A DNA stretch of 64,000 nucleotides from an uncultured Alphaproteobacteria bacterium (GTDB lineage Bacteria > Pseudomonadota > Alphaproteobacteria > Rhizobiales > Beijerinckiaceae), in the NCBI GenBank assembly GCA_963819255.1, contig CAWFVS010000038.1, forward strand, positions 108,986 through 172,985, written 5' to 3'. How positions within the stretch are numbered: the stretch's first letter is position 1; every line of letters starts with the position of its first letter. Below are positions 4,698-18,458 of the stretch, one piece after another. Under the pieces are notes generated by a model. It made no database searches. It was not told the origin of the DNA and saw only the letters and a list, made by a program, of their open reading frames with translations. Both the position numbers and the translations under genes were made by a program.

Positions 4698-4868
4698 CCC
4701 TCTCCGCGAAGCGGGGAAGGTGTCGCCGAAGGGCGGGGGTCTGGAAAGCAGGTATGGATCGATGCAGTTTTGCCGTGACAGTCGTGCAATCCGACTTGCA
4801 TCGAAGCAGCGGGCCACACCCCATCCGGCGCTTCGCGCCATCTTCCCCAGCAAGCTGGGAGGGGATGC
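4698..4868. repeat. REP/REPIN-like palindromic repeat, copy 1
   Basis: ccgcgaagcggggaagg ... cacaccccatccggcgcttcgcgccatcttcccc; homologous to 8175-8360 and 16960/18281-18432. Confidence 0.8.
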
Positions 4869-7917: not shown

Positions 7918-8174
7918 GAATGGTTCCTCCAGTCGATCTCGACAGACGCGCCGCTCCGAAAGGCGGACTGTTCAGCCCAGGCTTGGCGTCTCGTTCAGGC
8001 CCGAAAGGTAGAGCAGGAATTTGCGGCGCGCTTGGACATTGTTGATCAAAGAACATCAAAGCGGGCGAGCCGGCTCTTGCTGGCCCGGGACTCCTTCTTG
8101 CTGGCCTGGCCCGGCGCGGCCGGGCGGGCGCGATTGGTTCAGAACCGCGCCGCCTTCCCGACGTTGCGTGCGCG

Positions 8175-8359
8175 CCTCCTTCCCCACGGAGTGGGGAAGG
8201 AGGCGGGCGAAGCCCGACGGATGGGGTGCGGAAAGCAGAACTGCAACGATGAAGTCTCGCTGCGACCGTCGCGCAAGCCTGCAAGCGCCGAAGCAGCGGC
8301 CCACACCCCATCCGACCGGCTCCGCCGGCCACCTTCCCCACTTCGTGAAGAAGGGAGGC
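8175..8359. repeat. REP/REPIN-like palindromic repeat, copy 2
   Basis: ccttccccacggagtggggaagg ... cacaccccatccg...ggccaccttcccc; the spacer is homologous to the other copies. Confidence 0.8.
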
Positions 8360-13380: not shown

Positions 13381-13449
13381 TGGCGTCCAAGCGGTTCATG
13401 ACAAGGAGGCGTTCATATCAGAAGCGCGCCATCCGCTCATGTCGCCGTT

Positions 13450-14410
13450 CTACTTGACGATCGGTATTTTCGACCGGTCGATGGTGACGGCGACCGCAAC
13501 GATCAGAACCGCGCCGAAAACGATGTTTTGGGCGAAGATATCGACGCCGACGAAGGTCATGCCGATGCGGACCACCGAAATGATCAGGGCCCCGATCAAG
13601 GTGCGCCAGATGCTCCCGACGCCGCCGGTGATCGCCGTGCCGCCGACGATGACCGCGGCGATCGAGGGCAGGAGGAGCTCGCTCGCCAAGGTCGGCGAGC
13701 CGCTGGCGAGGCGCCCGGCGAGAATCACGCCGGCCAAGGCGGCGCAGGTCGCCCGACAGGATAAGGGCGATGATCTTCTGCCGATCGACCTTCACGCCGG
13801 ACGCATAGGCCGCCGCCTCGCCGGCGCCGATCGCGGCGCTGTAGCGGCCGAAGCGCGTGCGGCTCTGGATCGTGTGGGCGACTGCGAGCACGACGAAGGC
13901 GATCACGACGACGTTCGGCACGCCGAGGAGGGAGCCCGTGATCCAGGTCTGGTAGTCGCGCTCGCTCGTCTGCAAGGTGATCGAGCGCTCCTTCGACAGG
14001 ACCAGGGCGGCGCTGAACAGCACGCCGCCCATCGCCAGGGTGGCGATGAAGGAAGGCACTTTCAGACGGACATGCGCCAATCCGGAAAGAAAGCCGACCA
14101 AAATCCCGGCGGCGATGGCGAAGGCGAAGGCCGCGTAGCCCCAGCGCGACAAGGTCAGCGCGACGATGACGCTCGCCAGCGACGCCATCGACTGAATTGA
14201 GAGGTCGATCCCGCCGACCATGATCACGAAGGTGACGCCGGTCGCCAGCACGAACAGGACGGCCGTGTCGCTCGCCAGATCCAAGAGCGTCGCCGGTTCG
14301 AGAAAGTCCGGCTGGAAGGCGCCGACCAGGGCGATCAACACGACGAGCGTCACGATCGGCATCCATTGACGGATGCTCTCGAATTCGAGTTTGCCGATCG
14401 GCGTGCGCAT
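13450..14410 (-). CDS. Sugar ABC transporter permease (frameshift ~13755)
   Basis: GGIDLS, PSFIATL and IAAVIVGGT RbsC-type motifs. Confidence 0.9.
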
Positions 14411-16946: not shown

Positions 16947-17077
16947 GGAGAGGCGCGCCCCCCTTCTCCGCGAAGCGGGTAAGCAACTGTGTTGGTCGGC
17001 ATAGCCCGGTGCTCGGCGGGCTCGAGGCTGGCGCTTCGCGCCCCGCCTCCGGCGGCTTCGGCCTTGACCCCGTCCGC

Positions 17078-18095
17078 TCACCGGGCTTTTGGCCTGCAAG
17101 CGGTCGGCGCGATGCGCCGCCCGGCGGCCTCGCGCGGGCCCGCTCGTGGGGCCGCTCGAGCCTGCGGGTTCCAGGGCTCGTCGCGGGCGAGCATGGTGTT
17201 CAAGATGACGATCAGCTTGCGCATGCAGGCGATGATCGCGACCTTGGCTTCCTTGCCCTTGGCGCGCAGGCGCTGGTAGTAGGCTTTGAGCACCGGGTTG
17301 TGCTGGGTGGCGGCGCCCATGACCGGCATATAAAGGAGGTTGCGCAGCTTGCGGCGTCCGCCCTTGATGCAGCGCGCGCCTTTGCGCTCGCCGCTGTCGT
17401 CGTCGTAGGGCGCGGCGGAGAAGGGCGCCGGCGGCTCCGTTGCTGATGCGTCCGAGCTCGGGCAGCCAGGCGATCACCCCGGCGGCGGTCTGGTCGGCGA
17501 GCCCGGGCACGCTGTCGATGAGCTCGGCCCGGCGCGCGAACGCCGGGTTGGCCTTGATCTTGGCTGCGATGGCGGCGTCGAGCTTGCGCAGCTCGGCGCG
17601 GATCGTCTTGGCGATCGCAGCCTGGGCCTTGGCGACGATGGCCGGCGGATCATGCTCGCGCTGCTGCTTGATGCGATCTTCCACGTCTTTCAAGGCCGTC
17701 CGGGCCTGGACCAGGCGCGCGATCTCTTCACGCGCGGCATCGTGCCTTGAGGCTCGCCGTCGGGAAAAGCCTCGGCGAACCTGGCGATCGTCTCGGCGTC
17801 GATCGGATCGTTCTTGGCCAGCCGCCCGGCCGCCTTGGCGAAATGGCGAACCCGCTTCGGATCGACGATGACAACCTCGAGCCCGGCCGCGCGCAGGGCT
17901 TCCGCCCAGCTCCGCTCATAACCGCCGCTCGCCTCCATCACCGCGCGGCGGACCCCGTTCGACCGCAACCAGGCGATCAGCTCCGCCTCGCCCTCCGGAG
18001 TCGCTCGACGCGCTGGCGCAGCCCCAGCGAATGAATGCAGGCGTCGACTTTTTCTTTGCGACATCGAGGCCGACAATGCGCGTCTCTTGTGGCAT
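17078..18095 (-). CDS. IS110 family transposase/recombinase (several frameshifts)
   Basis: IVGLDVAK, VMEASGGYE, AKNDPIDA, DDSG..KG.R.IKGGR and GKEAKVAIIACMRKL motifs. Confidence 0.9.
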
Positions 18096-18099
18096 ACTC

Positions 18100-18275
18100 C
18101 CACTCCCTCCTTGCTCGTGCGGGCTCTCACGCCCATGCAACTGTTCGGGCTTATGGAAGACGCCAGACCTGTCCCTCGCTTCCCCGCAGTCTTCATCTGT
18201 GGTGGCCACGGGCTCAGGTCCGGCGACGGGCGGTTGCTTGGACAGCGCCCGTTCGCCCACCTCTCACATTTGCGG
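18100..18275 (-). ncRNA. Putative bridge RNA of the IS110
   Basis: Non-coding left end containing GGCCACC and GCGGGGAAG (target guides, enclosed by a GACCTG/CAGGTC stem) and ACAGTTGC (donor guide). Confidence 0.75.
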
Positions 18276-18280
18276 ACACA

Positions 18281-18432
18281 AGGTGGCCCGAAGGGCCGGA
18301 TGGGGTGTGGAATGCAGGGCATGCTCATTTGAAGTTCGCGGTGACGGTCGTGCAAGACGCCAGGCGCATTAGAGCGGGCCACACCCCATCCGGCCTTCGG
18401 CCACCTTCCCCAGCAAAAGCTGGGGAAGGGAT
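18281..18432. repeat. REP/REPIN-like repeat, copy 3 (left part at 16960-16983, split by the IS110)
   Basis: aaggtggcccgaagggccggatggggtg ... cacaccccatccggccttcggccaccttcccc inverted arms. Confidence 0.85.
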
Positions 18433-18458
18433 GCACCCCGTCTCTCCGCGAGCCGTCG

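Follow-up and report, generated by a model that had tools for sequence, protein, structure and literature searches.

An IS110-group insertion sequence at a fixed CT of a host REP repeat in an alphaproteobacterium, with a probable IS621-type bridge RNA in its left end

The window, a 64,000-nt stretch of a contig from an uncultured alphaproteobacterium, carries an IS110-group insertion sequence at a fixed CT dinucleotide of a host REP repeat. The left end of this element very probably encodes an IS621-type bridge RNA with guides for the target and for the joined element ends. An alphaproteobacterial bridge system of the IS621 type, with a CT core and host REP targets, had been proposed in an earlier note on this DNA, and the proposal is borne out by 10 of 10 left junctions in the genome and by covariation of guides with targets in relatives. 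Both the mechanism, described for IS621 in PMC11208160, PMC11208158 and PMC13626964, and the targeting of REPs are already known, and the element is a candidate distant bridge recombinase of a known family. The host is Hyphomicrobiales-like; its ribosomal protein S2 has its best match in Methylobacterium at 83% identity (among 63 plasmid records).

The insertion, its junctions and the host repeat

Including both CT cores, the element occupies 16982..18282 on the minus strand by comparison of the junctions of the genome copies, and is 1301 bp long here versus 1313-1314 bp in the intact copies. The REP that it interrupts belongs to a divergent pair lying between two genes of a sugar ABC transporter, those for the binding protein and the permease, and the element has the same strand as these genes. 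Read on the minus strand, the left junction is GGGCCAC-CT-TGTGT with its core at 18282-18281, and the right junction is ACAGTTG-CT-TACCC with its core at 16983-16982; they agree with the target GGGCCAC-CT-TACCC and donor ACAGTTG-CT-TGTGT that the earlier note had reconstructed. The left core CT and right donor TGTGT fall at 18276..18282 and the left donor ACAGTTG and right core CT at 16982..16990 (both minus strand, by junction comparison and a motif check). Outside the element, the left half of the interrupted REP is at 18283..18309 (minus strand), with the left target GGGCCAC at 18289-18283 forming part of the 3' arm of a small hairpin. The right half is at 16960..16981 (minus strand), with the right target TACCC at 16981-16977 carrying one guide mismatch and lying in the 5' arm of the terminal hairpin.

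The 6.0-Mb assembly contains 7 full copies, 6 of them near-identical (the window copy included) and one at 83%, and several fragments besides. When the flanks of the genomic copies are collected, as the earlier note advised, they lie at one site and not at unrelated ones: 10/10 left junctions read GCCAC-CT-TGTGTCC, all within one repeat family. The right junctions (n = 11) comprise 5 with CTTCCCC, 4 with one mismatch to it, 1 that is donor-like and 1 poly-T artefact; a twelfth match to the right-end motif is unrelated sequence and was left out of the count. The CT is present at 10/10 left and 11/11 right junctions, a short core common to both ends and the target. The donor-like flank, in copy L004 on contig C37, resembles the donor for exactly the 7 bases covered by the guide and then becomes REP again in register, and is either a real strand-exchange remnant or an assembly artefact. 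A circle was considered for its end-to-end motif and ruled out, as the sequence runs on into the REP. Fragments with a left end only are L010 (G000:C44:91864-92043), L011 and G000:C5:69433; L010 ends directly after the left donor guide, a donor-like sequence, and fragments of this type could come from self-targeting or from misassembly.

Unrelated short-read samples also have the element in REP-like flanks, including a 717-nt contig that aligns to an intact copy without gaps and with 1 substitution. Among the joints listed for contigs from other samples, none leads from one element end back to the other as in a circle, although contigs of this kind cannot prove absence. Joints that skip the element in contigs from other samples were discarded as evidence for empty sites, having sides of 20-24 letters that could be any empty REP. 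At strict E-values, the family-level search gave a match in 1 of 200 other genomes, and the order-level search in 1 of 400.

Two sites named as unoccupied in the earlier note are exact matches to the 13-nt target predicted from the guides. One, at 18399-18411, is in the second REP of the divergent pair, which is empty (18379..18433, plus strand), and the other, at 8327-8339, is in a further empty REP (8303..8357, plus strand). The genome has 8 exact sites for this target versus a mean of 0.45 and a maximum of 4 for 40 letter-permuted 13-mers; at up to one mismatch it has 80 sites versus a mean of 21 and a maximum of 81, so the excess is clear for exact sites only. A REP profile gives 157 matches, 132 of them across both halves; of these full repeats 58 are within one mismatch, a fraction that is biased because the seeds were picked by their match to the guides. 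The intervals 18310-18378 and 8212-8300 are the spacers of divergent REP pairs, partly conserved and BIME-like, and window sites with 2 mismatches lie at 4836-4848, 4725-4713, 8173-8185 and 8205-8193. An IS481-like element (L172, G000:C44:71770-73174) has five more full copies, with most copies in or beside REP-like repeats, with one inside the REP hairpin adjoining the C33 copy of the IS110 element. There are also three matches to the Y1-transposase family in the genome (L174-L176).

Guide pairing might supply the address while the REP hairpins provide a structural gate that is also required, as has been reported for ISPpu10, and we regard this as a serious possibility, at somewhat less than even chances. 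All 10 left junctions are in REPs (one REP being split by another IS), in most copies a hairpin has the left target as its 3' arm, as described in 10.64898/2026.03.19.712850, and sites with up to 2 mismatches number 267 outside REPs versus 131 inside by a crude context rule. However, clean sites in use differ from the guides by 0-1 mismatch, and REPs already account for 61 of the 80 sites of that quality, so that five clean copies cannot reveal extra selectivity; moreover, relatives aimed at the REP 5' end share no upstream hairpin. By analogy with ISPpu10 some structural role for the hairpins is plausible, and guide pairing at the fixed CT is the reading we carry forward.

Recombinase and predicted bridge RNA

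The recombinase gene lies at 17144..18095 on the minus strand; it is frameshifted here, and an intact 318-aa product is encoded in 3 of the 7 full copies (C44, C7 and C33). The intact protein has both domains of the family, the DEDD RuvC-like PF01548 and the C-terminal serine PF02371, and keeps residues D11, E55, D97, D100 and S236. NCBIfam NF033542 scores 184.8 bits against a cut-off of 140. The only PDB relatives are IS621 and ISCro4 (8wt6, 9t56), which are distant (E = 1.6e-31).

Compared with intact C7, the window copy has 13 deletion events, 2 insertions and 8 substitutions, which leave the gene in pieces. That the window copy is a decayed pseudogene, a reading that concerns this copy only, is unlikely. 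It would account for the several frameshifts and the lost stop codon, but deletions outnumber substitutions (13 versus 8) and are mostly losses of a single base, the adjoining ABC permease gene (13418-14410, minus strand) likewise has one frameshift, probably an assembly error, and the assembly also holds a T-depleted version of the element (G000:C63:28600-29000) and a poly-T/poly-A flank (G000:C38:336250-336285), both from raw long-read errors. Together the degenerate stretches, the permease frameshift and the excess of deletions point to long-read errors, and the frameshifts are likely of that origin. The window copy is thus likely intact in vivo, or else served in trans by the intact copies. 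The frameshift-corrected gene that the earlier note had asked for is unnecessary, because three natural copies are intact.

As expected for the IS110 group, the predicted bridge RNA lies in the left end and precedes the gene. The fold of the left end, suggested earlier as a check, has z = -3.3, with 1 of 200 shuffles as good. The guides are in the left end, which sets the element apart from the IS1111 (seekRNA) group, defined in PMC11208160 by a right-end guide RNA and long subterminal inverted repeats. A search of Rfam gives no real match, the 3 microRNA matches being chance ones far below the cut-off. A scaffold aligned over 24 chosen left ends is 95.7% paired, versus 31-53% when slid. Its covariation is modest by count, with 3 of 35 pairs changed on both sides, a level reached by 52 of 500 shuffles; its covariation score is reached by 0 of 500.

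To place the guides, the IS621 numbering was taken from PMC11208158, and four A-G-N-C-Y-G motifs coincide with the four flipped-A/syn-G positions of that numbering. The register so mapped onto the left end, with guides, bulge, handshake and linker, is an analogy with IS621, as is the pairing geometry. All features that follow are on the minus strand. A 5' stem-loop of the predicted RNA is at 18223..18256 (fold and scaffold alignment), followed by the target-binding loop at 18164..18222 (scaffold alignment, register from PMC11208158). The motifs listed earlier are all in place, GGCCACC at 18207-18201, GCGGGGAAG at 18187-18179 and ACAGTTGC at 18144-18137, and so is the stem formed by GACCTG (18220-18215) with CAGGTC (18171-18166). 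Within the target loop, the left target guide GGCCACC (18201..18207) consists of 6 nt and the core C, which makes it shorter by one than that of IS621, and the right target guide GGGGAAG (18179..18185) of 7 nt, with a GC at 18187-18186 that the IS621 register would make a linker. Putative handshake bases CG (18177..18178) would pair with donor T6-G7 after strand exchange.

The donor-binding loop (18097..18160, from fold and scaffold) has an outer stem predicted to lie over the ribosome-binding site. Its left guide ACAGTTGC (18137..18144) matches the donor directly. Its right guide AC[GA]GCAAG (18110..18118), which the earlier note did not have, is placed by its match and the IS621 register, and, like its IS621 counterpart, is interrupted by a 2-nt bulge and includes one G-T wobble; a compensatory change is found in one clade. 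In the window, with the IS621 register, the donor guides match the circle junction, the right one discontiguously, and donor covariation is that of a single clade. Putative donor-loop handshake bases GA are at 18108..18109, where the G would pair with target C7. The handshake pairing fits in the window, and its letters hardly vary among loci. Because the parser relied on donor-like motifs to find the ends and took one handshake letter as given, the donor and handshake counts are partly circular.

An extended -10 box is predicted at 18259..18266 from conserved letters. Over 76 distinct left ends, -11A is found in 74, -7T in 74, and the TG letters in 68 and 74. The candidate promoter has its -35 TTG in the right end at 17-bp spacing, with 2 nt of the spacer lost in the window copy, and would be complete at the circle junction only; as predicted, it fits the junction promoter of IS621.

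The right end holds a conserved branched, three-way hairpin at 17003..17087 (minus strand, from alignment A2 and covariation), found in at least 95 of 108 loci. In 36 diverse copies, 7 of 27 pairs have changed on both sides, a number reached by 0 of 500 shuffles. Many loops are of the GNA type, and L064 and L131 either lack the hairpin or have a shortened form. The hairpin core also adjoins other transposase genes in Azospirillum (L182, L183). It has no match in Rfam and 0 matches in a scan of viral contigs.

If IS621 is the guide, the element would work as follows. Read-through from the same-strand sugar-transporter operon would give a little RNA and enzyme, and the element ends would join at the CT into a circle. 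The circle junction would complete the promoter (right-end TTG, 17 bp, extended -10), which would drive expression of the bridge RNA. The target loop would then read (G)GCCAC-C on the bottom strand and CTTCCCC on the top strand, and the donor loop ACAGTTG-C and CTTG-T-GT. Finally, the DEDD/serine site would swap strands at the CT, with the handshake bases favouring insertion.

Guide-target covariation among relatives

Relatives came from scanning genomes and metagenomes (69 loci; best 80 of 231) and from a family search. Of 157 loci, 131 could be read by a parser blind to the target guides, leaving 26 unparsed, and 130 were tested. L007 was dropped for its poly-T flank, L071 and L073 were also left out of the tree, the window copy is outside the covariation set, and three left ends were re-located with a stricter donor motif. 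L033 and L157 are identical in the gene and downstream flank but differ in their target loops, and L120 is a mosaic element; each case is either a chimeric assembly or recombination between copies. They are likely chimeras, yet were kept in the counts.

Across these 130 loci, the letters of guide and target covary at target positions 2-7 and 10-14, and not at 1, 15 or 16. For 43 left guides, the match at positions 1-7 is 0.21, 0.43, 0.58, 0.71, 0.82, 0.89 and 0.99, versus 0.19, 0.27, 0.28, 0.28, 0.42, 0.63 and 0.82 when guides are shuffled; 0 of 10000 shuffles reach the observed value at each of positions 3-7, and 57 of 10000 at position 2. For 23 right guides, positions 10-14 match at 0.90, 0.84, 0.81, 0.78 and 0.75 versus 0.69, 0.33, 0.38, 0.60 and 0.34 shuffled (at most 4/10000). 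On a tree of 127 rows, independent pairs show the target following the guide at positions 4, 5, 6, 11 and 12 (p 0.008-0.03). Such pairs are few, and positions 1-3, 10, 13 and 14 are not significant among them, position 14 having the same lean with too few pairs. For position 11, the recombinase tree shows 17 changes of the guide letter.

These joint changes bear on whether the recombinase itself recognises the REP, the guide-like matches being relics captured from the repeat or the element ends. The REP 3' arm does contain the right-guide sequence, but this is because the repeat is palindromic. Against protein recognition, guides and targets switch jointly many times on the tree, also to unrelated repeats, and they do so within a fixed scaffold in the IS621 register, which makes that explanation barely tenable. 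We retain guide-directed targeting.

The length of the right guide was given as 9 nt in the earlier note, pairing with CTTCCCCGC. As a complement in the sequence this stands: the 9-mer is complementary to the used site of the window with one mismatch, and 6 of the 17 loci carrying it read GC at positions 15-16. As a guide, only the last 7 nt behave like one in the covariation, on the tree and in loci outside the test. Positions 15 and 16 match at 0.13 and 0.47 versus 0.22 and 0.41 shuffled, there is no tree signal at 15, and of the 17 loci sharing this guide, 8 have G at position 15 and 6 have C at position 16. In two loci that were not part of the test set, the guide matches at 7/7 right positions and misses the next base. 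The same GC is also found at the donor-loop linker, and the IS621 structure has a linker there (PMC11208158). A 9-nt guide is therefore very improbable. Since covariation ends before position 15, we take the right guide to be 7 nt, with the leading GC belonging to the scaffold.

The two sides do not carry equal weight throughout the clade. In the sub-clade of our element, which has a short left guide, the right side matches in 37-40 of 42 loci at positions 10-14 and 6 of 42 at 15, and the left side in 50 of 51 at position 7, 24 of 51 at 3 and 14 of 51 at 2. Specificity there is weighted to the right, five right positions matching well and the left match fading more than 4 nt from the core. The sister clade (L036-L068, L158, L160, L178-L181) has a strong left match and a poor right one, with 5-10 of 23 at positions 11-14; it may be left-weighted, or possibly inserts into another repeat by a half match. 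Its left guide is ACGCCC, its right loop is up to 2 nt longer, and several of its right flanks start with CTTG, which is donor-like.

Known systems and natural retargeting

The closest precedent by site is ISRm19 of Sinorhizobium meliloti, an IS110-family element with 4 of 4 copies in REPs, described in PMC1525189, which predates bridge RNAs. It shares with our element an alphaproteobacterial host and the same point of the same REP type, GCCAC or GGCAC-CT-TCTCCCC (PMC1525189), and by our own reading of its left end in supplement S6 of that paper it carries two guides for its site, a left one and a right one of 7 nt. Its left-end scaffold and donor are different, and its target is CTTCTCC versus CTTCCCC. 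Locus L173, tried as ISRm19, is a relative and not ISRm19 itself. The name ISRm19 is not found in the searchable supplement text of PMC11208160.

With IS621 and ISCro4/IS622 (PMC11208160, PMC11208158, 10.1101/2025.05.14.653916), the element shares the DEDD plus serine recombinase, a two-loop bridge RNA in the left end (here predicted), the CT core and the REP target. Also in common, as predicted here, are the 8-nt left donor guide, the bulged right donor guide with a G-T wobble, the handshake bases and the junction promoter. It differs from IS621 in its natural right guide of 7 nt versus 4, extendable to 7, in a left guide that is one shorter and pairs with the core C only, in a short donor-loop hairpin, and in the branched right-end hairpin. 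According to PMC11208160, longer right guides occur naturally in some orthologues, and a 7-bp extension ("extended RTG") was tested there. Unnamed members of the clade are in its supplement, with the same donor ACAGTTG-CT-TGTGT and the same scaffold; one row has the target of locus L157, and the same REP position occurs among the listed IS110 targets. Among the rows listed, the right-guide columns are gapped in 19 of 21, so that the right guide of the clade is mostly unaligned in that supplement. The exact target GCCACCTTCCCC has no match in the supplement text searched. The precedent is close, because ISRm19 uses the same repeat position and the clade is in the alignments of PMC11208160.

ISPpu10 and ISPpu9 of Pseudomonas putida (10.64898/2026.03.19.712850, PMC12288879) are likewise REP-targeting IS110 elements with a CT duplication and a left target in a 5' stem-loop. 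They share a tolerant distal left guide and a stringent right guide, and ISPpu10 has a hybrid circle promoter. Unlike our element, which is known from sequence alone, they have been tested in the laboratory, and their repeat is gammaproteobacterial. Further related literature is 10.64898/2026.08.31.748434. Searches at the level of titles and listings returned no paper devoted to this clade, which bioRxiv supplements may list.

Relatives aim at the REP 5' end, the middle junction and the terminal hairpin, and also at two other repeats, with 26 changes of target class on the tree, a count for which the classes are too crude to be relied on. At the finest scale, L016 and L017 have 7 differences over 1313 positions, of which 4 sit side by side in the right guide, and the same 4-nt block separates L016 and L108 from the near-identical L017, L018, L109 and L113. 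The variant guide has an inverted 7-mer match 30 nt downstream, a match that 4 of the 81 possible blocks would also have, in a single event noticed post hoc; a template switch from that 7-mer is possible. More broadly, the clade could be a natural record of guide reprogramming, with repeated moves among sub-sites and repeats, left-right shifts in specificity, perhaps block rewriting by template switching, and a right-end hairpin perhaps acting on the single-stranded circle or transcript, though we rate this whole picture as rather improbable. A full-text literature search gave no paper on guide rewriting by template switching or on the right-end hairpin.

The element adds a probable distant bridge recombinase with three intact natural copies and a fully mapped guide layout. 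Its natural right guide of 7 nt has the length that raised specificity in engineered IS621 (PMC11208160). The many natural guide variants of the clade offer a ready set for studying how guides change, and how the left and right sides share specificity.
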